Below the pieces are notes generated by a model. It searched no databases. It saw only the letters and a list, made by a program, of their open reading frames with translations, and was not told the DNA's origin. DNA of 19,598 bases from a virus (Duplodnaviria > Heunggongvirae > Uroviricota > Caudoviricetes), in IMG/VR virus record IMGVR_UViG_2526164634_000022; one strand, 5' to 3'. The position numbers and the translations under genes were made by a program. Positions 1 to 18,597 of the stretch are shown piece after piece (within the stretch, counting starts at the first letter, position 1; each line of letters begins with the position of its first letter).

Positions 1-1254
1 ATGCTGGAACAAATGGGCATTGCCGCGAAGCAAGCCTCGTATAAATTAGCGCAACTCTCCAGCCGCGAAAAAAATCGCGTGCTGGAAAAAATCGCCGATG
101 AACTGGAAGCACAAAGCGAAATCATCCTCAACGCTAACGCCCAGGATGTTGCTGACGCGCGTGCCAATGGCCTTGGCGAAGCGATGCTTGACCGTCTGGC
201 ACTGACGCCCGCACGGCTGAAAGGCATTGCCGATGATGTGCGCCAGGTGTGTAACCTCGCCGATCCGGTGGGGCAGGTAATCGATGGCAGCGTACTGGAC
301 AGCGGCCTGCGTCTTGAGCGTCGTCGCGTACCGCTGGGGGTTATTGGCGTGATTTATGAAGCGCGCCCGAACGTGACGGTTGATGTCGCTTCGCTGTGCC
401 TGAAAACCGGTAATGCGGTGATCCTGCGCGGTGGCAAAGAAACGTGTCGCACTAACGCTGCAACGGTGGCGGTGATTCAGGACGCCCTGAAATCCTGCGG
501 CTTACCGGCGGGTGCCGTGCAGGCGATTGATAATCCTGACCGTGCGCTGGTCAGTGAAATGCTGCGTATGGATAAATACATCGACATGCTGATCCCGCGT
601 GGTGGCGCTGGTTTGCATAAACTGTGCCGTGAACAGTCGACAATCCCGGTGATCACAGGTGGTATAGGCGTATGCCATATTTACGTTGATGAAAGTGTAG
701 AGATCGCTGAAGCATTAAAAGTGATCGTCAACGCGAAAACTCAGCGTCCGAGCACATGTAATACGGTTGAAACGTTGCTGGTGAATAAAAACATCGCCGA
801 TAGCTTCCTGCCCGCATTAAGCAAACAAATGGCGGAAAGCGGCGTGACATTACACGCAGATGCAGCTGCACTGGCGCAGTTGCAGGCAGGCCCTGCGAAG
901 GTGGTTGCTGTTAAAGCCGAAGAGTATGACGATGAGTTTCTGTCATTAGATTTGAACGTCAAAATCGTCAGCGATCTTGACGATGCCATCGCCCATATTC
1001 GTGAACACGGCACACAACACTCCGATGCGATCCTGACCCGCGATATGCGCAACGCCCAGCGTTTTGTTAACGAAGTGGATTCGTCCGCTGTTTACGTTAA
1101 CGCCTCTACGCGTTTTACCGACGGCGGCCAGTTTGGTCTGGGTGCGGAAGTGGCGGTAAGCACACAAAAACTCCACGCGCGTGGCCCAATGGGGCTGGAA
1201 GCACTGACCACTTACAAGTGGATCGGCATTGGTGATTACACCATTCGTGCGTAA
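1..1254 (+). CDS. proA: gamma-glutamyl phosphate reductase (ProA)
   Basis: 417-aa ORF starting at window position 1; translation ([24 protein letters not shown]...) recognised as enterobacterial ProA; thrW follows, as in E. coli chromosomes. Confidence 0.95.
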
Positions 1255-1368: not shown

Positions 1369-1444
1369 GCCGATATAGCTCAGTTGGTAGAGCAGCGCAT
1401 TCGTAATGCGAAGGTCGTAGGTTCGACTCCTATTATCGGCACCA
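1369..1444 (+). tRNA. thrW: tRNA-Thr (anticodon CGU)
   Basis: 76-nt sequence GCCGATATAGCTCAGTTGGTAGAGCAGCGCATTCGTAATGCGAAGGTCGTAGGTTCGACTCCTATTATCGGCACCA; 7-bp acceptor stem GCCGATA/TATCGGC, T-arm GGTTCGACTCC, anticodon loop with CGT, encoded CCA end. Confidence 0.9.
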
Positions 1445-1609: not shown

Positions 1610-2824
1610 GTGAAACTCAATGCCCGTCAAATAGACACAGCCAAGCCAAAAGAGAAGGCTTACAAGCTGGCCGATGGTGGCGGTTTGTATCTCTTGGTAA
1701 AACCTAATGGAGGTAAATACTGGCGACTTAAATATCGTGTAGCTGGTAAAGAGAAGCTATTGGCACTAGGTGTGTATCCTGAGGTTACTCTAGCCGATGC
1801 TCGGGCAAAACGTGAAGATGCGAAAAGAGGTATCGCTGGTGGTATCGATCCGATGGAAGCGAAACGAGAGGAAAAGATTGCCCGGGAAACGCAGTTAAAC
1901 AACACCTTCAAAGATATTGCCCTTGAGTGGCACAGCAGCAAATTAAAAAAATGGTCTGCTGGTTATGCTTCAGACATCCTCGAAGCCTTCAACAAAGATG
2001 TGTTCCCTTACATTGGCAAAAAACCAATCGCCGAAATCAAACCACTTGAACTTCTGAATGTGCTGCGGCGCATCGAGGGGCGCGGTGCGACAGAAAAAGC
2101 CAAAAAAGTGAGGCAGCGGTGCGGGGAAGTTTTCCGCTATGCAATAGTCACTGGTCGCGCAGAGTATAACCCTGCACCAGACCTTACTAGCGCGATGCAA
2201 GGCCATGAATCTAATCATTACCCTTTCCTTACGACCAAAGAATTACCTGATTTTTTCAAGGCATTATCCAGTTACTCAGGAAGCGCATTGGTTGTTATGG
2301 CGGCTCGTCTACTGATTATCACCGGCTTGCGAACTGGCGAACTACGTGGCGCATTATGGGATGAAATTGATTTCAACAAGGCTATATGGGAGATACCCGC
2401 TTCACGTATGAAAATGCGGCGGCCTCATATTGTGCCATTGTCTGAGCAGGCTCTTTCGCTTATTGGGAAGATTAGAGAAATAACAGGCAATTACCCTCTT
2501 ATGTTTCCCGGGCGCAATGATCCAAGGAAAACAATGAGTGAGGCCAGCATAAACCAAGTGTTTAAGCGCATTGGCTACGCTGGACGTGTAACTGGTCATG
2601 GGTTCCGACACACTATGAGCACGATTTTGCATGAGCAGGGCTATAACACCGCGTGGATAGAAACGCAGCTCGCTCACGTTGATAAGAACTCAATTCGTGG
2701 CACATACAACCATGCGCAATATCTGGATGGACGGCGGGAGATGCTTCAATGGTATGCCGACTATATGGATTCTCTCGAGCATGGCGGAAATGTGGTGCAT
2801 ATGGTGTTTGAAAAACACGCATGA
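1610..2824 (+). CDS. P4-family tyrosine integrase (site-specific recombinase)
   Basis: 404-aa ORF with GTG start at 1610 and GGAGG 9 nt upstream. N-terminus (MKLNARQIDTAKPKEKAYKLADGGGLYLLVKPNGGKYWRLKYR) is typical of P4-type integrases; C-terminal catalytic region has HGFRHT and a downstream RGTYNHAQY tyrosine motif. Sits directly 3' of a tRNA gene. Confidence 0.9.
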   Translation: MKLNARQIDTAKPKEKAYKLADGGGLYLLVKPNGGKYWRLKYRVAGKEKLLALGVYPEVTLADARAKREDAKRGIAGGIDPMEAKREEKIARETQLNNTFKDIALEWHSSKLKKWSAGYASDILEAFNKDVFPYIGKKPIAEIKPLELLNVLRRIEGRGATEKAKKVRQRCGEVFRYAIVTGRAEYNPAPDLTSAMQGHESNHYPFLTTKELPDFFKALSSYSGSALVVMAARLLIITGLRTGELRGALWDEIDFNKAIWEIPASRMKMRRPHIVPLSEQALSLIGKIREITGNYPLMFPGRNDPRKTMSEASINQVFKRIGYAGRVTGHGFRHTMSTILHEQGYNTAWIETQLAHVDKNSIRGTYNHAQYLDGRREMLQWYADYMDSLEHGGNVVHMVFEKHA

Positions 2825-3251: not shown

Positions 3252-3455
3252 ATGGCTAATTACAATTCATTAATTCGTCTCTCTGAAGTTCAAAGGCGAA
3301 CTGGTTATAGCAAAGCATGGATTTATCGTCTTATTAGTCAGGGGAGGTTCCCTAAACAGGTAAAAATTGGAAGTCGGGCAATTGCTTTTGTTGAGTCTGA
3401 AATAGATGAATGGATTGAGAAGTGTATATTAGAATCTAGAGACGAGGTGGCCTGA
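3252..3455 (+). CDS. alpA: AlpA-family transcriptional regulator / excisionase-like HTH protein
   Basis: 67-aa ORF; the motif LIRLSEVQRRTGYSKAWIYRLISQGRFPKQVKIGSRAIAFVESEIDEWI matches the AlpA/phage-Xis MerR-like HTH pattern; typical position after a P4-type int. Confidence 0.85.
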   Translation: MANYNSLIRLSEVQRRTGYSKAWIYRLISQGRFPKQVKIGSRAIAFVESEIDEWIEKCILESRDEVA

Positions 3456-3898: not shown

Positions 3899-4732
3899 AT
3901 GAACATCGAAAAAAGCAGATTAATTTCTGAGGCTGCCCCTCATCTAAACGCCTCTCTGGGCACAATTAACGGTAATGAATTTGCCGCAATTGTCCCGGTT
4001 ATTCCTGGTCATATCGGTGGGCGTGAAACCAATATTGTTAGCGCAAAAGCGTTACACAAAGCGTTGGACGTGGGAAAAGACTTCTCTACATGGATCACTG
4101 ATCGCATCTCTGAATATGACTTCACCATTGGGCACGATTACTCAGTCCATAAAACTATTTCCCCAAATTTGGGGAAAATCCCGAATGGCGCGGCTTACAG
4201 CAAGATTAAGCAGTCTGGAAGACCCGGCAAAGACTATCTGTTAAGTGTCGGAATGGCGAAAGAACTGGCAATGATCGAACGCAATGATCAGGGGCGCGCT
4301 ATCCGTCGTTATTTCATCCAGTGCGAGGAAGAATTACAGCGTAGCGTGCCTGAAATCGCCGCCCGCTATCGTCGCCAGCTAAAAGCCCGTATCAGTGCCG
4401 CAAACAACTTTAAGCCAATGTGCGATGCGCTGAATATGGCCCGTGCCGAGATGGGGAAAACGACGCAGCAACACCACTACACAAACGAGAGCAATATGAT
4501 TTCTCGTATCGTTCTTGGTGGGCTAACTGCTAAGCAGTGGGCGCGGATAAATGGCTATTCTGGCGAACCTCGCGACCATATGAACGCAGAACAGCTTGAG
4601 CACCTCTCATATCTCGAAAGCACCAATATCACGTTAATTGATATGGGCATGGAATATGAGCAGCGCAAAGGAGAACTCACCCGCCTGTCGCAACGCTGGC
4701 TCGCTAAGCGTCTGGAGGCGGTCCATGTTTAA
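3899..4732 (+). CDS. AntA/AntB-type phage antirepressor-like protein
   Basis: 277-aa ORF with GGAG 7 nt upstream. N-terminal region (SAKALHKALDVGKDFSTWITDRISEYDFTIGHDY ... LSVGMAKELAMIERNDQGRAIRRYFIQCEE) resembles the AntA antirepressor domain; C-terminal half unassigned. Confidence 0.7.
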   Translation: MNIEKSRLISEAAPHLNASLGTINGNEFAAIVPVIPGHIGGRETNIVSAKALHKALDVGKDFSTWITDRISEYDFTIGHDYSVHKTISPNLGKIPNGAAYSKIKQSGRPGKDYLLSVGMAKELAMIERNDQGRAIRRYFIQCEEELQRSVPEIAARYRRQLKARISAANNFKPMCDALNMARAEMGKTTQQHHYTNESNMISRIVLGGLTAKQWARINGYSGEPRDHMNAEQLEHLSYLESTNITLIDMGMEYEQRKGELTRLSQRWLAKRLEAVHV

Positions 4733-4907
4733 GCCGACAGGAACACCACAACCTCAAAAACGCTACAAAGATGCCCACGGAGCACTCGTTACTGTCGAAA
4801 GCGTGTCTCACAACCGAGTGACGTTTTATCGCGACGGGTATCAATCGCCATGCGTACAACCGCTGGCACGTTTCATGAAGGAGTTCGCGGAGGTTAACAA
4901 ATGCTAA
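4725..4907 (+). CDS. small hypothetical protein (60 aa)
   Basis: ATG at 4725 with GGAGG 6 nt upstream, overlapping the end of the previous gene by 8 nt; in frame with the listed 4638-4907 ORF. Confidence 0.45.
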   Translation: MFKPTGTPQPQKRYKDAHGALVTVESVSHNRVTFYRDGYQSPCVQPLARFMKEFAEVNKC

Positions 4908-5968
4908 CCGCCCAGAAGAAGACATTTTCACTGGCTGGTATGTCGCCAAAATCCAGCAATATGACAGCAAAGTCAGGCATTAATACAGCAGATACAAGCA
5001 AAGTTTATCATTTGCTGGTGGTAGGAGCGGATGCCTTAACTATGTCAGAAATTACGGTCGATGGTGTTAGCGTTGAGAAGGTCAGCGGCTGCGCCAGAGA
5101 ATTTCTGGTCGTAGATGGCTTTCTCTGCTCGCGTAGTGACTCCACAAAAACCTTCGTCCACGCGCGTGACGTTAACGAAATGAGCGCGATGTACTGTGCT
5201 TCTGGTTCTTCCAATAGTGAGTTTTCGGAGTCCATAAAAAAGAGCTTGCCGTTATGCGGCAACACGGTTTATGGTTATAAGGCACCTCATAAAACGGGTG
5301 CCGGGATTGGCGTCCTGGTAAATCGAATGGCGACATATGACGCGCCGAGCGTCTTTTTTTATGTCGTAGGTCTGACTCACCCATTTTTTGGGCGTTGGTG
5401 TATAATCCAGCGCCTTTGTCAATCAATGGTGGCTCAGGCAGGGGCTTCTTCGGAAGCGCCGGTATCCATTCGAGCCGGTTACGCCAACCCTGTCTGGGCT
5501 ACCACCAGCGAAATTGGCGTTTCCGGTGGTAGCGTTACATGCTATCGAATGGAGGCTGCCACATGCTGGCTACTACCCCTACCCAAAAACCGCAATTTAT
5601 CTGGATTATCGCCGCAGTTCGCCGCGATTGCCCGACAATTACCGCCAAAATTCATCATATTGCTGCCGAGTCTGAACGCGATGCTCGCCGTTCTCTGGTG
5701 CGCGATCACGTCTGCTTTTTTGCTGGTCGTATCCGCATGGAGGTGGCACATGATTAAAACCTACGATGTGCATATGGATCCCCTCGAACGCACAAGCCAG
5801 ATCATCACACTGACAGAAGTGATTAACGACATTCTGGTGAGCAACTCTCCCTCACGAGACGAAAGACTGAAGGCGTTACTCGCGATATTGGATCTCGCCG
5901 TTCGTGACGTTCATTTCCTGCTGGAAGGTGGCGAAATGCCAGTAAAAACGGGGGAAACCAATGAATAA
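4901..5968 (+). CDS. long ORF of uncertain structure; 4901-5560 looks coding, the 3' part overlaps two better-supported small genes
   Basis: ATG at 4901 with GGAGG 9 nt upstream; the frame stays open for 355 codons, which is unlikely by chance; no recognisable family. True end unknown. Confidence 0.3.
5563..5757 (+). CDS. small protein, possibly Icd-like (P4-family host cell division inhibitor-like)
   Basis: ATG at 5563 with GGAGG 7 nt upstream; 64 aa ([57 protein letters not shown]...); the resemblance to Icd-like proteins is from memory, not a search. Confidence 0.45.
   Translation: MLATTPTQKPQFIWIIAAVRRDCPTITAKIHHIAAESERDARRSLVRDHVCFFAGRIRMEVAHD
5750..5968 (+). CDS. small hypothetical protein (72 aa)
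   Basis: ATG at 5750 with GGAGG 6 nt upstream; overlaps the previous stop (ATGATTAA); first gene of a chain of coupled small genes. Confidence 0.5.
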   Translation: MIKTYDVHMDPLERTSQIITLTEVINDILVSNSPSRDERLKALLAILDLAVRDVHFLLEGGEMPVKTGETNE

Positions 5969-7580: not shown

Positions 7581-7944
7581 AAATGCAGAAATGGCGCTTA
7601 GCTCCGCAATCGGAGAGCAGGTGGCAAAGATTGCTGGTGCTGTGTGGATTCATAACCTTCATTCTACTGGTGAAGAGAAAATGGCAATTCAGACGCCAGA
7701 GGGACGCACCATTACTACATCTCTGAAGCCGTCAGATGTTTGTGATCTGATTTGCGCATTCATGTACCCAGCAATGAGGACTGTCCACGGCGATAAGTGG
7801 AAACTTGCGACAACCGCTGAATTTGATATGTGGCTAAACAATGATGGCATGCTGACTGATTACGGAATAACCAAGTGGCAGATGCTGGTTAGCCATATCG
7901 CAAACGCTATAGACCACGTGGGGTACGGTGATGCGAAACATTGA
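7573..7944 (+). CDS. hypothetical protein (123 aa)
   Basis: ATG with GGGAGG RBS; overlaps neighbours at both ends. Confidence 0.6.
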   Translation: MRENAEMALSSAIGEQVAKIAGAVWIHNLHSTGEEKMAIQTPEGRTITTSLKPSDVCDLICAFMYPAMRTVHGDKWKLATTAEFDMWLNNDGMLTDYGITKWQMLVSHIANAIDHVGYGDAKH

Positions 7945-10687
7945 TCTTATCCGTCAGGTTATCAGTGCGTCTGAAAACAACTGGCCTCATGTGCTGGGCT
8001 GCCTGAACATAAATGTCCCTGACTCTCCGCGCCGTCATGCTCCCTGCCCTGCATGTGGGGGCAAAGATCGATTCCGGTTCGATGACAACGGGCGCGGTAG
8101 CTTCATCTGTAATCAGTGCGGCGCTGGTGATGGGCTGGATTTAATTAAACGCGTAAATAACTGCGACACAACAGAGGCGGCGCTTCTTGCCGCTGATGTT
8201 CTGGGTATTGATTACCGGACAACGGAAACACCAGAAGCCACCAGCCAGAAACGGGAACAACTGGAAACCGAGCGCCAGCGACGCGAACAGGAGCGCCTGA
8301 AAAGGGCAGAGAAGGACGAACAACAAAGACGGGATACGTTTTCCCGTCAGTTTGATGACATGCGCAGAAAGGCTGTAAACGGCAAATCTGATTATCTGGT
8401 TGCGAAAGGGGTAGGTGATTTTACATTCCCCGTGTTGCCCGATGGATCTCTGTTGCTGGCGCTGGTGGATAAATCCGGCGCAGTCACAGCAGCACAGACT
8501 ATTACCTCACATGGTGAAAAAAGACTCCTGACAGGTTCAGCAAAGCGGGGGGCATATCACGCCTTAAACGCACCAGAAACAACACAGAGCATCTTAATCG
8601 CAGAAGGGCTGGCAACGGCATTATCTGCCCATTTAATTCGTCCAGAGGCGCTGACAGTGGCGGCAATTGATGCCGGGAACCTGTTATATGTGGCCCAGGT
8701 ACTGCGGGATAAATTTCCTTCAGCACAAATCATCATTGCTGCGGATAACGACCACAGCGAAGGAAGACAAAACACGGGGAGAATAGCAGCAGAAAAAGCA
8801 GCTTTATCTGTTTCTGGATGGGTGGCATTACCCCCGACAGATCACAAAGCAGACTGGAATGATTACCACCAAAAACACGGCATTAAATGCGCCACAGAAG
8901 CGTTCAATAAGTCAATGTACCAACCACAGGGTAATGGCGTGAAACAGGAGCCACAGACCATTGAGGGAAGCGATTTTAAGGTTATGGATACCGACCCACT
9001 GAAACCAAGAATAGAAAGCCGCGAGGATGGTATTTATTGGGTATCTCCGAGAGCTGACAACCAGAGTGGAGAAATCATCAATAACGAAAGCTGGTTATGT
9101 TCTCCGTTAAGCGTTATCGGTACTGGCAGAGACGATAAAGACCAGTATCTCATTCTTCGCTGGCTGTCGTTTGGTTCTGAAACGCCGACAACCGCTGCCA
9201 TTCCACTGGCTGATATTGGTGAACGTGAAGGATGGCGCACACTTAAAGCTGGTGGGGTAAATGTCACGACCAAAAGCAGCCTCAGAGCAATACTGGCAGA
9301 CTGGCTACAACGCAGTGGCTCTCGTGAATTGTGGCGTGTTGCTCATGCCACTGGCTGGCAATGCGGAGCGTACATCATGCCTGATGGGGAAATCATCGGA
9401 ACACCTGAAAATCCTGTGCTGTTCAGCGGGAGAAGCTCAGCCGCAGCCGGATATACCGTCTCAGGGAGCGCGAAAAGCTGGCGTGATAACGTGGCGCGTC
9501 TGGCCTTTGGTAACTATTCAATGATGACCGGGATAGGCGCAGCACTGGCAGCGCCATTGATTGGGCTGGTGGGCGCTGACGGGTTCGGCATTCATTTCTA
9601 TGAGCAGTCGAGCGCAGGTAAGACCACCACGGCAAACGTGGCGAGCAGCTTATACGGCAACCCTGATTTACTGCGGCTGACGTGGTACGGAACCGCGCTG
9701 GGGCTGGCAAATGAGGCCGCCGCCCACAATGACGGACTAATGCCGCTTGATGAAGTTGGTCAGGGCGCTGATCCTGTCAGCGTTTCACAGTCTGCCTATG
9801 CGTTATTTAACGGTGTAGGGAAACTGCAAGGCGCTAAAGATGGTGGAAACCGGGATCTAAAACGCTGGCGTACAGTGGCAATCAGCACCGGAGAAATGGA
9901 TTTAGAAACATTTATCGCTACTTCCGGGCGAAAAACCAAAGCCGGGCAACTGGTGCGACTGCTGAATATTCCGTTGAGTAAAGCAGTACGCTTTCACGAT
10001 TACCAGAACGGAAAACAGCACGCAGACGCACTGAAAGACGCTTACCAGCATCACCACGGCGCGTCCGGGCGTGAGTGGATTAAATGGCTGGCAGACCACC
10101 AGCAACAGGCTATTAAAACCGTTCGTGACTGCGAAAGCAGATGGAGAAGCCTGATCCCATCCGATTATGGTGAGCAGGTTCACCGTGTAGCCGCGCGATT
10201 TGCCATTCTGGAGGCCGCATTGTTGTTAGGCGAGGTTGTAACAGGCTGGGATGCTCAGACATGCCGTGATGCGATACAGCACAGCTATAACGCATGGTTG
10301 CGCGAGTTCGGCACAGGTAACAAAGAGCATCAGCAGATTATTGAACAAACGGAGGCATTTCTTAATGCCTATGGGCTTAGCCGTTTTGCACCATTTCCAT
10401 ACAGCCCGGCAGATTTGCCCATCAAAGATTTAGCCGGATACCGTCAGCGTGGAGAACATGACGAAAGCCCAATGATTTTCTACACATTCCCGGCCACATT
10501 TGAAAAGGAGATCGCATGTGGTTTCAACGCAAAACAGTTTGCTGAAGTGTTGAAAAAAGCCGGGATGCTAACCCCACCAAACAGCGGTCGTGGATACCAA
10601 AGAAAATCACCACGTATTCAGGGACGACAAATAAACGTTTATGTACTCAATTACCAGCCAGGAGATTATAACTCATCTGAAGAATGA
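7928..10687 (+). CDS. P4-alpha-like primase / replication protein (zinc-ribbon + Toprim primase + P-loop/DUF927-like C-terminal domain)
   Basis: 919-aa ORF (GTG 7928 or ATG 7931). N-terminal Cys4 zinc ribbon (CPACGG...CNQCG); Toprim-like motifs ILIAEGLATALSA (compare the P4 alpha EGYATA motif) and IIIAADNDHSEGRQNTG; P-loop-like YEQSSAGKTT; followed directly by an iteron origin. Confidence 0.9.
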   Translation: MMRNIDLIRQVISASENNWPHVLGCLNINVPDSPRRHAPCPACGGKDRFRFDDNGRGSFICNQCGAGDGLDLIKRVNNCDTTEAALLAADVLGIDYRTTETPEATSQKREQLETERQRREQERLKRAEKDEQQRRDTFSRQFDDMRRKAVNGKSDYLVAKGVGDFTFPVLPDGSLLLALVDKSGAVTAAQTITSHGEKRLLTGSAKRGAYHALNAPETTQSILIAEGLATALSAHLIRPEALTVAAIDAGNLLYVAQVLRDKFPSAQIIIAADNDHSEGRQNTGRIAAEKAALSVSGWVALPPTDHKADWNDYHQKHGIKCATEAFNKSMYQPQGNGVKQEPQTIEGSDFKVMDTDPLKPRIESREDGIYWVSPRADNQSGEIINNESWLCSPLSVIGTGRDDKDQYLILRWLSFGSETPTTAAIPLADIGEREGWRTLKAGGVNVTTKSSLRAILADWLQRSGSRELWRVAHATGWQCGAYIMPDGEIIGTPENPVLFSGRSSAAAGYTVSGSAKSWRDNVARLAFGNYSMMTGIGAALAAPLIGLVGADGFGIHFYEQSSAGKTTTANVASSLYGNPDLLRLTWYGTALGLANEAAAHNDGLMPLDEVGQGADPVSVSQSAYALFNGVGKLQGAKDGGNRDLKRWRTVAISTGEMDLETFIATSGRKTKAGQLVRLLNIPLSKAVRFHDYQNGKQHADALKDAYQHHHGASGREWIKWLADHQQQAIKTVRDCESRWRSLIPSDYGEQVHRVAARFAILEAALLLGEVVTGWDAQTCRDAIQHSYNAWLREFGTGNKEHQQIIEQTEAFLNAYGLSRFAPFPYSPADLPIKDLAGYRQRGEHDESPMIFYTFPATFEKEIACGFNAKQFAEVLKKAGMLTPPNSGRGYQRKSPRIQGRQINVYVLNYQPGDYNSSEE

Positions 10688-11458: not shown

Positions 11459-11920
11459 ATGGAACTAAAATTTATTGATAACCCTGTGCGATTACAGGCC
11501 TTTCTTAACGAGCCAGGCAATACCGAAAATATTGTTGAGCCGGGGCACACGTACTACATCAAGCCTGATGCGGTATATCTCGGCATCTACGAAGGATTAG
11601 TGCTGGCTGGCGTTCATGAAGTGCGTAACTTCTGGCATAGCGTTGTTGAATGCCATGCGGTGTACGACCCCGGATTCCGTGGTGAATATGCACTGCAAGG
11701 ACATCGATTATTCTGCAAATGGCTTCTCGAAAACTCACCATTCCTTAACAGCATCACTATGGTTCCTGACACCACGAAATACGGACGGGCAATTATCCGT
11801 TTGCTTGGCGCTACCCGTGTTGGTCACCTTGATGATGCTTATATCAGATGTGGTAAACCCGTCGGCGTAACGCTTTATCAGTTAACTCGGCAACAATATA
11901 AGGAATTCAGCGAATGTTAA
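11459..11920 (+). CDS. hypothetical protein (153 aa)
   Basis: ORF with the next gene's ATG overlapping its end; no family recognised. Confidence 0.6.
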   Translation: MELKFIDNPVRLQAFLNEPGNTENIVEPGHTYYIKPDAVYLGIYEGLVLAGVHEVRNFWHSVVECHAVYDPGFRGEYALQGHRLFCKWLLENSPFLNSITMVPDTTKYGRAIIRLLGATRVGHLDDAYIRCGKPVGVTLYQLTRQQYKEFSEC

Positions 11921-12591
11921 TTACCCATATAGCTCATAAACATCTCAATCGTGCCGTATACGAAAAAGGCGGTGATGGTGGTGCCTCTAAAGCTCAGGCG
12001 AAGGCCCAGCAGCAGGCAATTGATTTGCAGCGCGAGCAGTGGAATACGGTGATGAATAATCTCAAGCCGTATGCAGAAGTCGGATTGCCTGCTTTACAAC
12101 AACTACAAGGACTGATGACTCTGGAAGGGCAGAATAAAGCCGCGAATGATTTCTTTGGTTCTGGTTTATATAAAACACAGGCAGATCAGGCCCGTTATCA
12201 GAACCTTGTCTCAGCAGAAGCTACCGGGGGGCTTGGCTCAACAGCTACCAGTAACCAGTTATCTTCCATTGCGCCCATGCTTTATAACAATTGGCTTAGT
12301 GGGCAAATGCAAAATTATGGAAACCTGCTAAATGTCGGGATGAATGCGGCATCAGGGCAGGCAACGGCAGGGCAAAACTACGCCAATAATACCGGACAAC
12401 TCTTGCAGGGGCTTGGCGCTATTCGTGCAGGTCAGGCGCAGCAGCCATCCAGTCTTGCGCGTGGTATTGGTGGGGCAGCATCAGGCGCTTTAGCGGGTGC
12501 GCAACTTGGTTCCGTTGTTCCTGGAATAGGAACTGCGGCCGGCGCTATTGGTGGTGGGCTTATTGGTCTTGTTGGGGGGCTTGGATTCTAA
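11914..12591 (+). CDS. Q/A/G-rich protein, possibly a P22-family ejection (DNA-transfer) protein gp7 homolog
   Basis: 225 aa; N-terminal YEKGGDGGASKAQAKAQQQ, Q/N/A-rich middle, Gly-rich hydrophobic C-terminus (GIGTAAGAIGGGLIGLVGGLGF); size and first position in a three-gene coupled operon match P22 gp7 (229 aa). Homology is recalled, not searched. Confidence 0.5.
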   Translation: MLITHIAHKHLNRAVYEKGGDGGASKAQAKAQQQAIDLQREQWNTVMNNLKPYAEVGLPALQQLQGLMTLEGQNKAANDFFGSGLYKTQADQARYQNLVSAEATGGLGSTATSNQLSSIAPMLYNNWLSGQMQNYGNLLNVGMNAASGQATAGQNYANNTGQLLQGLGAIRAGQAQQPSSLARGIGGAASGALAGAQLGSVVPGIGTAAGAIGGGLIGLVGGLGF

Positions 12592-14012
12592 TGGCGACAT
12601 GGCAACTTGGCGGGCTGCCTAGCATGGCACCGCAAAATGATAATGCTCCTCGTTCTTCCGTTCCTCAGCCTGTGCAGTATCAGCAGCAGCCAAACGTAGG
12701 TTTAATGGCGCTACAGGGGCTAAGAGGCGTTGCTGAGATTAATCAGCAGGCACGTCAACAACAGCGTAAAGCAGAGTTTCAGAAAGCATATGCCGGGGCT
12801 TTTGAGTCTGGAGACAGAAACAAAATGCGCAGTCTTATTTCTGAGTATCCAGAAGAATTTGAAAGCGTTCAGAAAGGGATGGGCTTTATTGATGACGACC
12901 AGAGAAATTCTATTGGTCATCTTGCGACTAGTGCTCAAATCGCATCTTCGCTCGGAACTGGGGCATTTGGAAAATTCATAGCAGATAACGAAGATGAAAT
13001 GCGTCGCTTGGGAATTTCTCCTGAGTCTGTTGCCGAAATGCATGTTAATGATCCACAGGGGTTCCAGCGGCTTGCTGGTAGTATGGCACTGTTTTCTCTC
13101 GGTCATGAGAAGTATTTCGATATCAAAGATCAAATGGAAGGTCGGGATATTGAGCGTGGCAAGTTGGCAGAAACAATCCGCAGCAATCAGGCTGGCGAAG
13201 CACTTCAGGCGAGAGGGCAGGATATTAGCCGAGCAAATGCGTTAACGTCAGCATATGCACCAACAGCAGCAATGCAGAATTACAATCAGTACGCTCAAAT
13301 GTTAAAGGCGGATCCAGAGGGGGCGGCGGCATTTGCGGCAGCGGCTGGAATTAATACAAACGCCAAAAAATTAATGAGTGTTAGAGAAAACGATGATGGC
13401 ACTGTCACAAAATACTACACAGACGGAAGTGAAGAGCAGGGAAAACTAAACCAGCCAATATCTGGAGATGGGTTTCGTCCAATAGCTTTGCCAACAGCCC
13501 AAAAGATCATGGAAAAGTCGCCAGAAGGGGCTAAAAAAGCTGCTGGATTTGCATACAGGGTTAGGGATGCTCTTGATTCAATAGATACACTGAAAGACCA
13601 GCTTAGCCCACAGCGAGTGGCGATCATTAATAATGCTTTGGGTAATGGGACGCTGGCTAACTTAACGCTCAGCCCAACAGAACAGCAATACGTTGTTAAT
13701 GCTAATGACGCAATAATGGCAATACTCCGTCAGGAAACAGGGGCAGCCATCGTACCTGCTGAAATGTCAAAATATTATCAAATGTATTTCCCTCAGCCTG
13801 GCGACTCCACAAAAACCATTGATACCAAGCGCCGGAAGATGGAAAACCAGTTCAATTCGCTGAAAGCTGCTTCTGGTCGAGCTTATGATGCTTTGCGGGT
13901 TATTTCAGCAGTTGACAGAGGAACTTCTTCTTCGTCGCAGACATTGCCGCAATCTGAGCAGGTATCACAGCCAGCAGCCAGCAGTAACTTTTCTTCACTA
14001 TGGGGTGATTAA
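12591..14012 (+). CDS. Q/A-rich protein, possibly a P22-family ejection protein gp20 homolog
   Basis: 473 aa (P22 gp20 is 471 aa); TAATG start/stop overlaps at both ends; low-complexity Q/A-rich composition. Confidence 0.5.
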   Translation: MATWQLGGLPSMAPQNDNAPRSSVPQPVQYQQQPNVGLMALQGLRGVAEINQQARQQQRKAEFQKAYAGAFESGDRNKMRSLISEYPEEFESVQKGMGFIDDDQRNSIGHLATSAQIASSLGTGAFGKFIADNEDEMRRLGISPESVAEMHVNDPQGFQRLAGSMALFSLGHEKYFDIKDQMEGRDIERGKLAETIRSNQAGEALQARGQDISRANALTSAYAPTAAMQNYNQYAQMLKADPEGAAAFAAAAGINTNAKKLMSVRENDDGTVTKYYTDGSEEQGKLNQPISGDGFRPIALPTAQKIMEKSPEGAKKAAGFAYRVRDALDSIDTLKDQLSPQRVAIINNALGNGTLANLTLSPTEQQYVVNANDAIMAILRQETGAAIVPAEMSKYYQMYFPQPGDSTKTIDTKRRKMENQFNSLKAASGRAYDALRVISAVDRGTSSSSQTLPQSEQVSQPAASSNFSSLWGD

Positions 14013-17523: not shown

Positions 17524-17619
17524 TACAGGCAACCGAGCCCGATCCTCTGTTTCTCCGCCGCCGATTTCAGGCATGTGAGTTTCACGGTCGGGCCTTTTAT
17601 TATCTTTTGTTTCGCCACT

Positions 17620-18597
17620 ATGATTGCCGCAAAGCCTCATAAGGACTATCACGAATTGCTAGGATTGCTACTTGAACGTGGCATGATTATCAATGATCGA
17701 AATCGTGCGATACGTAAGCTGTCGCAGGTTGGATATTATCGATTGTCAGGTTTTTGGTACCCATCAAGAATTATTGCGACAACAGATAAAGGTCTTTCGT
17801 ACAGAACAGACCGATTTCTTGCTGGTACCAGTTTCGAGAAGACGTACGATCTATATCTTTTTGACAAAAAACTGCGTCTTTTGATGATTGATGCTATCGA
17901 AAGAATAGAGATTCATGTTCGTTCAGTCATCGCGCATGAGGTTGGTCGCAATGATCCACTTGCCTACATGTCATCAAAATACATTAATCCAAAATTCTCA
18001 TCTGCCTTCGAGCATTGGGTGTATAAGCAAAAAGTAAAATTAGACGAAAGCAGAGATGACTGTATTGAATGGCATCGAAGCCAAGGCAAGGAGATTCCAT
18101 TTTGGGTGGCGGTGGAGACCTGGGATTTTGGTCAGATGTCTAAATATTATGCGATGCTTAATGGTCATATGCAGGGGAAAATTATACGTCGTTTTGGCAT
18201 TGATAATAAGCAGACATTTGCAAAATGGTTGAAGTGCCTTAATCTCATAAGGAATCGTTGCGCTCACCATTCCAGAATATGGAATAGAAAGCATCCCCGA
18301 GTTCCAGTACCGGATAATGAATACTTTGACGGACTTAATCTCCATCCAGAGAGTTGCGAGAGGATTTTTAGCGCGATCTGTATTATCTGGTACTTAGTTA
18401 AACGACTTGGTCCGGGATCAACATGGCTTCGGCAAATTGCAGACCTTATTGACTCTAAACCAAATGTTCCCGGATGTGGATATGATTCAATGGGTTTACC
18501 TGCTAAAGGATTCCCACGAGAGAGATTCTCTCAGGACTTAGGTTTTGTTATCGCCGACAACGACCCTGTAGCTGAAGGGCGGAAAGGGAGCGATTGA
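17620..18597 (+). CDS. Abi_2 family abortive-infection protein (AbiD/AbiF-like)
   Basis: Motifs YYRLSGFWYP, ERIEIHVRSVIAHEVG and NLIRNRCAHHSRIWN, characteristic of the AbiD/AbiF (Abi_2) family. Start set at the first in-frame ATG (17620); the track ORF extends to a GTG at 17575. About 40% GC. Confidence 0.8.
   Translation: MIAAKPHKDYHELLGLLLERGMIINDRNRAIRKLSQVGYYRLSGFWYPSRIIATTDKGLSYRTDRFLAGTSFEKTYDLYLFDKKLRLLMIDAIERIEIHVRSVIAHEVGRNDPLAYMSSKYINPKFSSAFEHWVYKQKVKLDESRDDCIEWHRSQGKEIPFWVAVETWDFGQMSKYYAMLNGHMQGKIIRRFGIDNKQTFAKWLKCLNLIRNRCAHHSRIWNRKHPRVPVPDNEYFDGLNLHPESCERIFSAICIIWYLVKRLGPGSTWLRQIADLIDSKPNVPGCGYDSMGLPAKGFPRERFSQDLGFVIADNDPVAEGRKGSD

Follow-up and report, generated by a model that had tools for sequence, protein, structure and literature searches.

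The question raised by this locus is what a 355-codon open reading frame (ORF) is for when it overlaps two small genes that start at positions 5563 and 5750 and have ribosome-binding sites (RBSs) of their own. The ORF lies in a 19,598-nucleotide (nt) stretch of DNA from a virus of the Caudoviricetes (IMG/VR record IMGVR_UViG_2526164634_000022), referred to below, at its full length, as the window. The original prediction, made from the letters alone, had pointed to this overlap, which is indeed present, and had offered as alternatives a structured leader RNA like that in phage P4's immunity region or a real long ORF. These turn out to be a false choice, as both coexist in P4 (PMC10111431): in the account of Forti et al. 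1999 given there, P4 eta is a long ORF that contains a constitutive promoter, seqA and CI, with Kil as its short form. The region is the control region for lysogeny of an Escherichia coli island that parasitises phages. Very probably, it represents the switch for immunity, or lysogeny maintenance, in an island that is related to P4, depends on a helper and belongs to the EcCIMP1 type, and it is built like eta-kil-cI of P4. This kind of switch, the P4/P1 type, is already known, and the copy in the window is a member with its own immunity specificity.

Central to this reading is an antisense RNA of the C4 family, to which the cI immunity RNA of P4 belongs. A covariance search places a full-length match (model positions 1-87) within the 5400-5560 interval, where a structured RNA had been anticipated; the span listed in Table 1 is that of the Rfam model, and the mature RNA, probably about 77-79 nt long, would lie inside it. 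C4 RNAs are freed from a longer transcript, with a 5′ end made by RNase P, which is a criterion of the family. The P4 immunity factor is reportedly an RNA as well, a finding said to go back to Ghisotti et al. 1992 and later papers of the same group. By blastn, the P4 cI region aligns to 5423-5584 with 71% identity over 160 nt, and phage P4 itself gives the same two Rfam matches as the window, C4 and isrK, in the same order; C4 corresponds to the CI RNA of P4, and IsrK to its seqA (PMC3632133, PMC4825925).

The 88-nt C4 segment, with a long outer helix enclosing two hairpins, folds with a minimum free energy (MFE) of -47.2 kcal/mol (z = -5.8), and its first inner helix (helix 2) is the UUCG hairpin GCTTC-TTCG-GAAGC, located two bases from where it had been estimated and far beyond chance expectation. 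A covariance model made from five C4 copies was run over 88 related loci, 80 of them obtained from an Icd protein search, and found C4 in every one (88/88), always ending 51-57 nt before the icd start. Among the 43 distinct C4 sequences, standard pairs occupy 100% of 1160 cells (27 pairs), and compensatory double changes occur in 14 of the 27 pairs, including all five of the UUCG hairpin, values that none of 500 shuffles reached and against which slid controls were 32-52% paired. Two caveats apply: fitting the alignment to the model works in favour of pairing, and the sequences are relatives of one another. When genome contigs were scanned with a loose pattern for the second C4 hairpin, nearly all matches were chance ones in G+C-rich genomes, and three real loci were kept (Erwinia, Leclercia, Serratia). 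A more distant C4 copy of 87 nt occurs in Leclercia sp. EMC7 (locus L034, 3525-3611, minus strand); its read-through frame is not open and its leader spacing is much shorter, and it may represent a different sub-architecture.

Upstream of C4 lies an IsrK/seqA-like leader RNA composed of two hairpins followed by an intrinsic terminator at 5339-5360 (5339-5353 plus the T-run in the terminator scan), with a weak match to the Rfam c4-a1b1 family at 5269-5321. The two recognition loops of C4, a′ and b′, have exact complements in this leader (a1, b1) and again just downstream of C4 (a2, b2, at offsets of +5 and +35/36), in the equivalent of the P4 seqC region, where pairing of b′ extends past b2 to 5553 and overlaps the Shine-Dalgarno (SD) sequence of the icd-like gene. 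This arrangement recurs across the family. In all 43 variants, the a′ 7-mer is matched by two exact complements, a1 upstream, usually at -115, and a2 at +5 to +8 after C4. The b′ element, of 8 to 13 nt, is likewise matched in 42 of 43, by b1 upstream, usually at -100, and by b2 at +32 to +39, which extends into the GGAGG; the exception is the Erwinia locus L013, where no clear b2 was found. The loops and targets thus paired comprise at least nine a types and about 19 b types, which occur in several combinations.

A comparison of the window with its closest relatives illustrates how such specificities may be exchanged. The window and EcCIMP1, and likewise JL05 and KK19-02, are 95-100% identical on both sides of the immunity RNAs, with identical icd genes. 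Within the 245 base pairs (bp) at 5306-5550, compared with loci L004, L005 and L011 (EcCIMP1), the window is only 61% identical to EcCIMP1, with zero indels, against flanks of at least 97%. This segment holds C4 and all four target sites, and all six a/b sites have changed together: the a elements are ACGCCAA/UUGGCGU in the window versus CUGCGAA/UUCGCAG in the EcCIMP1 type, and the b elements are CCAUUCGA/UCGAAUGG versus CCUUGUAC/GUACAAGG. Own-type duplexes are predicted to be 3-8 kcal/mol more stable than cross-type ones, except for a′ with a2, where the gap is 1.4 kcal/mol. The 5306-5550 difference represents a swapped immunity cassette, and the window an EcCIMP1-like island with another such cassette. 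Because C4 and its targets differ together at 61% identity, the window island and EcCIMP1 should be heteroimmune though otherwise nearly identical.

The small gene at 5563 matches NCBIfam NF033153 (phage_ICD_like, 3.7e-20), and its P4 counterpart is formed by the last 65 codons of the old "cI" ORF; this agrees with P4 Kil, which has 65 residues. The original prediction, an immunity leader of the P4 kind in which a CI-type RNA and an Icd gene precede a replication operon, is thus borne out by Rfam, by blastn to P4 cI, by NCBIfam and by covariation. The 5′ half of icd is C-rich and G-poor (5538-5693, with a C/G ratio of 1.5-1.9), and this stretch is suggested as a candidate Rho entry site; the first gene of the P4 switch contains a Rho-dependent terminator (timm) that translation suppresses. 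The gene at 5750 overlaps the icd stop by 8 nt; a relationship to P4 epsilon was considered for it and rejected, there being no similarity.

How the long ORF relates to these RNAs is best asked of its frame. Over the span from 145 nt before C4 to the icd ATG, this frame is stop-free in 53 of 56 distinct regions, whereas neither of the other two is open in any (0/56 each), and they carry 1-8 stops (mostly 2-7) in those sequences; the variable loops do contain stop triplets, but all of these fall outside the long-ORF frame. Of 74 distinct loci, 72 have the ORF start upstream of their internal promoter, and 42 of 49 distinct starts overlap the stop of an upstream ORF of at least 50 codons, as in the window, where the ATG of the long ORF overlaps the stop of the DUF4222 gene (ATGCTAA). 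A P4-like layout, with the long ORF in frame with icd and ending together with it, is found in 25 of the 74 distinct loci; in 49, including the window, the two are out of frame, and 48 of these 49 run through icd to the end of the next gene. The C-terminus of the long ORF in the window is accordingly the 5750 gene, read in the same frame, a point missing from the original prediction, while icd lies in another. The icd+1 frame, which such a layout uses, has no stop in any of 38 distinct icd genes of the window type and is interrupted in 16 of 25 of the P4 type, where it is unused.

These counts speak against the notion that the long ORF is purely an annotation artefact, open by chance in G+C-rich structured RNA and an overlapping gene and never translated to any effect. 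RefSeq annotation is indeed inconsistent, giving 355 amino acids (aa), a pseudogene fragment or nothing, some copies are frameshifted, and constraint at the protein level is absent; yet the stops that crowd the other two frames, the icd+1 frame kept open precisely where it is used, the strong SD and recurrent start/stop overlap, and the experimental precedent of P4 eta, as PMC10111431 relates it from Forti et al. 1999, make an artefact quite improbable. The opposite idea takes the 355-aa product for a real regulatory protein of the "Ash family", dependent on its amino-acid sequence, and the RNA matches for secondary; it draws on the Pfam family PF10554 Phage_ASH (aa 124-232; 105.3 bits against a cut-off of 26, 3e-30), on PHROG families labelled transcriptional repressor or regulator, and on full-length 355-aa ORFs in sister islands with a strongly preserved frame. 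But the Pfam-matched span, nt 5270-5596, coincides exactly with leader, C4 and targets, and the 95 substitutions between the two immunity types are spread over codon positions 1, 2 and 3 as 35/31/29, which shows no selection on the amino acids, while none of the RNA pairs is lost. Moreover, the family name itself traces to the P4 ORF annotated as "put. ash gene" or "cI gene product", the N-terminal 115 aa have no family match and no relatives outside this island family, and the C-terminal part reads icd in the wrong frame. We consider a sequence-dependent Ash protein very improbable, even more so than an artefact. Full-length 355-aa homologues, which had been put forward as refuting a leader RNA, do exist in sister islands (e.g., WP_001812770.1, WP_000613398.1) but refute nothing, since what is conserved is the open frame and not the amino-acid sequence. 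The suggestion that a separate real gene occupies 4901 to about 5400 was also rejected, as there is no in-frame stop, no family match and no relative outside the island family. On its sequence, the long ORF matches P4 eta; it is not explained by chance, nor does it encode a protein conserved in sequence.

Two further alternatives concern what transcribes C4 and what it controls. The leader has two conserved elements upstream of it, AAAAAGGGCTTGCC... and TATGGT; the latter, the -10 element of a promoter-like pair, occurs in 45 of 61 distinct loci and the TTG of the -35 is kept, while the 18-nt spacer varies freely. A start from this pair is predicted near 5282, about the first base of the isrK model, and the module common to other island types begins at about 5253. 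The pair is the positional equivalent of P4 PLE and P1 P51; the internal promoter of P4 is likewise located inside its long ORF (PMC10111431), and both c4 promoters of P1 lie upstream of a1/b1. The original prediction had instead drawn attention to a TATAAT, which lies at 5401-5406, one base from its estimate. Were it an active promoter transcribing C4 directly, instead of or alongside processing of leader read-through, this would explain why a perfect -10 hexamer stands 16 nt ahead of the start of the C4 model and why it is present in 34 of the 61 distinct loci, with TAnnnT variants in several more, amid an otherwise diverged stretch. Against this, it has neither a -35 at 16-18 nt nor a TGn extension and was not called by the promoter scan; TATAAT by itself is unremarkable, with seven copies in the window, below the 10.4 ± 3.2 expected; and it is replaced by GTCATA, GTTACT and others in about a third of loci, is absent in P4, and runs counter to the P1 precedent. 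It also sits in the loop (UG-UAUAAU) of a hairpin, GGGCGUUGG/CCAGCGCC, whose MFE is -15.8 kcal/mol versus -4.9 ± 2.0 for shuffles; hairpins with different stem sequences occur at this position in 20 of 20 relatives folded, and the covarying stem points to a role at the RNA level. RNAalifold predicted nothing here, as two stem registers are mixed in the alignment; it is single-sequence folding that revealed the hairpin. The TATAAT is therefore probably not a promoter, and such a role appears rather unlikely. The hairpin itself lies between leader terminator and C4, is preceded by a T-run, and might act in processing or stability. The other alternative is a P1-type immI module, in which C4 would control an antirepressor gene (icd-ant); the Rfam family and the a1-b1-c4-a2-b2-icd order are the same as in P1, and an AntA/AntB protein is encoded nearby. 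However, the AntA/B gene lies upstream of the module, not downstream of icd, where small ORFs and a DUF927 primase gene follow, as in P4, whose controlled operon is the replication operon, and so this alternative deserves next to no weight.

Table 1. Coordinates and bases of assignment of the features discussed, in window positions.
Feature	Positions	Strand	Details
proA	1-1254		417-aa length and annotated MP1 locus
tRNA-Thr	1369-1444		
Integrase gene	1610-2824		
AlpA gene	3252-3455		
AntA/B gene	3899-4732		
DUF4222 gene	4725-4907		
Eta-like long ORF, 355 codons	4901-5968	+	ATG 4901, TAA 5966-5968; SD GGAGG 4889-4893
Part of P22 gene 3 (small terminase) as an inverted copy, with pac position	5049-5155	-	blastn
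Promoter-like pair	5246-5275	+	TTGCCG 5246-5251, 18 nt, TATGGT 5270-5275
IsrK/seqA-like leader RNA	5282-5359	+	Rfam RF01394, 67.1 bits (gathering score 50)
a1	5307-5313	+	UUGGCGU, in hairpin loop of leader; exact complement of a′
b1	5323-5330	+	UCGAAUGG, in leader; exact complement of b′
Hairpin with TATAAT in loop	5390-5414	+	GGGCGUUGG/CCAGCGCC
C4/CI-type antisense immunity RNA	5422-5509	+	Rfam RF01695, 79.5 bits (gathering score 45)
UUCG hairpin	5444-5457	+	GCTTC-TTCG-GAAGC; first inner helix (helix 2) of C4
Recognition loop b′	5466-5473	+	CCAUUCGA
Recognition loop a′	5481-5487	+	ACGCCAA
seqC-equivalent target region	5514-5555	+	
a2	5514-5520	+	UUGGCGU; exact complement of a′
b2	5545-5552	+	UCGAAUGG; pairing extends to 5553
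icd/kil-like gene, 64 aa	5563-5757	+	ATG 5563, TAA 5755-5757; RBS GGAGG 5551-5555
Small gene, 72 aa	5750-5968	+	In frame with long ORF; good RBS
DUF927/Toprim primase gene	7928-10687		

The locus itself supplies the RNA identities and structures, the complementarity of loops and targets with its co-variation, the preserved frame and the start/stop overlap as a coupling signal, while for the use of the promoter, the processing of the RNA, termination by Rho and its suppression by translation we lean on P4 and P1. On these models, transcription in the repressed state would start constitutively from the promoter-like pair inside the long ORF and yield the leader RNA, mostly ending at its own terminator. 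Transcripts that read through would contain the C4/CI RNA, which would be cut out as a stable RNA and pair through loops a′ and b′ with both sets of targets, a1/b1 within the leader and a2/b2 a short way downstream. Pairing at b2 would cover the SD of the icd/kil-like gene, presumably the first gene translated from the internal promoter, and prevent its translation; Rho would then stop transcription on the untranslated C-rich RNA, leaving the downstream small genes and the primase silent. Upon induction, transcripts would arrive from the upstream, AlpA-controlled operon, and ribosomes would move by translational coupling from the DUF4222 gene into the 355-codon ORF and cross leader, C4, targets and icd, up to 5968. 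Since translation across the RNAs would keep Rho off, making read-through insensitive to the immunity RNA, the job of the long ORF would be to be translated rather than to encode a conserved protein.

Several points weigh against an eta-kil-cI-like switch and have to be set beside the evidence for it. The long-ORF frame has stops in three of the 56 distinct regions, and broken or frameshifted copies mean either that the open frame is not indispensable or that some copies are defective. The long ORF and icd use different frames, unlike in P4, and a literal "nested eta/kil" arrangement fails. Related loci share ancestry, and the counts given above overstate their independence. If the TATAAT at 5401 served as a second promoter making C4 independently, the step in which C4 arises from read-through would differ from that outlined, and all the dynamic steps take P4 and P1 as their guide. 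Among the frameshifted copies, database proteins of sister islands are shifted at the A6 run (5236-5241) or at the T7 of the terminator (5354-5360), truncating the long ORF; these homopolymer frameshifts may be real variants or assembly errors.

Set beside P4, the window shares homology with the cI region, the Rfam order, a homologous Kil/Icd-like first gene, a long ORF running from upstream of the internal promoter over the RNAs, a replication/primase operon downstream and an AlpA-type gene upstream. The differences lie in the recognition loops (a′/b′ being UUCUCAC and CCUGUGAA in P4, ACGCCAA and CCAUUCGA in the window), in the leader-to-C4 spacing (107 nt in P4, 62 nt in the window), in the primase, which is of the DUF927 type in the window, and in the helper, which is P2 for P4 and probably P22-like for the window. 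Kil is the in-frame terminal part of eta in P4, whereas in the window, taking icd as frame 0, the ORF is in frame +1 and ends with the next gene. With immI of P1/P7 the window has in common the Rfam family, the order and spacing of a1-b1-c4-a2-b2-icd, and the position of b2 beside the icd ribosome-binding site; P1, however, controls ant1/ant2 where the window has replication genes, and no long overlapping ORF is annotated in P1. A third relative is the IsrK - STnc1160 - orf45 - anrP locus of Salmonella Gifsy-1, on whose leader the Rfam isrK family matched by the window leader was built. A processed C4-like RNA occurs downstream of IsrK there (PMC4825925), and short terminated and read-through forms would be expected in the window too. 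The short IsrK of Gifsy-1 is reported to activate translation in trans, with an antirepressor/antiterminator cascade as output, and its Hfq binding and trans activity have been reported for Salmonella IsrK only (PMC4825925). The occurrence of C4 and isrK, and likewise of eta and Kil, in Gram-negative phage-inducible chromosomal islands has already been noted (PMC10111431).

The closest known island is EcCIMP1 of E. coli MP1, which is mobilised by the P22-like phage Kapi1 (Pick, Stadel and Raivio 2025, PMC11773190) and agrees with the window in its proA - tRNA-Thr integration site, gene order and pac-like fragment, the 245-bp cassette being what sets them apart. The ORF is described there as a conserved "Ash family protein", with mention of neither the RNAs nor a pac site (PMC11773190). 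In the window, the order after tRNA-Thr is integrase, AlpA, AntA/B, DUF4222, the long ORF, small genes and the DUF927/Toprim primase (Table 1). Farther along, at 11459-14012 and 17575-18597, the island encodes likely cargo: besides a DUF2824 protein and an Abi_2 protein of the abortive-infection type, there are homologues of gp7 and gp20 (Inj_translocase), which in P22 are ejection proteins. At least 80% of 4901-5770, the module with the same upstream part, is present in 479 of 5426 complete E. coli genomes (about 9%). Labels given to the same DNA by the Prokaryotic Genome Annotation Pipeline (PGAP) differ among five RefSeq genomes (L001, L002, L006, L007, L011): an "ash family protein" of 355 or 454 aa, a partial pseudogene together with an Icd-like protein, or an "Icd-like" protein of 188 aa extended upstream across C4, and in none of the five is an RNA gene annotated in the DNA of 4901-5968. 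The naming of PHROG families over this span as transcriptional repressor or regulator is probably a legacy of the old assignment of P4 cI as a protein.

Within the N-terminal part of the long ORF lies, in inverted orientation, DNA related to P22 gene 3. The match to positions 4-110 of the P22 genome (reverse complement) is 87.8% over 107 bp (E 2e-29), and the annotated 22-bp pac site (P22 4-25), which gp3 recognises within gene 3 to begin headful packaging, aligns with 5134-5155. Only 16 of 22 positions of the pac 22-mer agree, and 16 of 17 of the published pseudo-pac pattern (PMC10996546), a pattern that is unspecific when one mismatch is allowed, with five matches in the window versus 1.35 expected. 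The fragment is matched by 117 P22-type phages, and not by Kapi1, the proven helper of EcCIMP1, whose small terminase is of another type. The exact pac-like 20-mer was found in only 11 satellite-like viral contigs and in no phage terminase gene. A minus-strand ORF (5008-5265) was considered as a gp3 fragment and rejected at the protein level, and fragments derived from a helper do not occur generally at this position, as the N-terminal modules of island types L164 and L150 match no phage DNA. EcCIMP1-type islands have no terminase gene, and a helper of the P22-gp3 type would be reasonable given the P22 ejection-protein homologues on the island. We propose tentatively, along with the out-of-frame eta, that the fragment might be a packaging signal by which phages with P22-type small terminases package EcCIMP1-type islands or, since its transcription would run antisense to gene 3, the source of an antisense RNA that acts on the helper's small-terminase mRNA; both ideas are doubtful at present, and the fragment may equally be a recombination relic.

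What follows from these findings for E. coli and its islands is, above all, a correct reading of a locus that occurs in about 9% of complete genomes of the species and is inconsistently labelled by RefSeq, where a protein-family label conceals an icd/kil gene and two regulatory RNAs. An eta that is out of frame would amount to a distinct route to immunity-insensitive read-through, in which the ORF stays free of stops over the full length of a conserved gene read in another frame. The combinatorial a/b specificities could serve in typing immunity groups of satellites. The packaging mechanism of EcCIMP1 has been called hard to characterise, and its transfer by Kapi1 is very inefficient (PMC11773190); the pac-like fragment offers a lead on how islands of this type are packaged and on which phages may be their efficient helpers.

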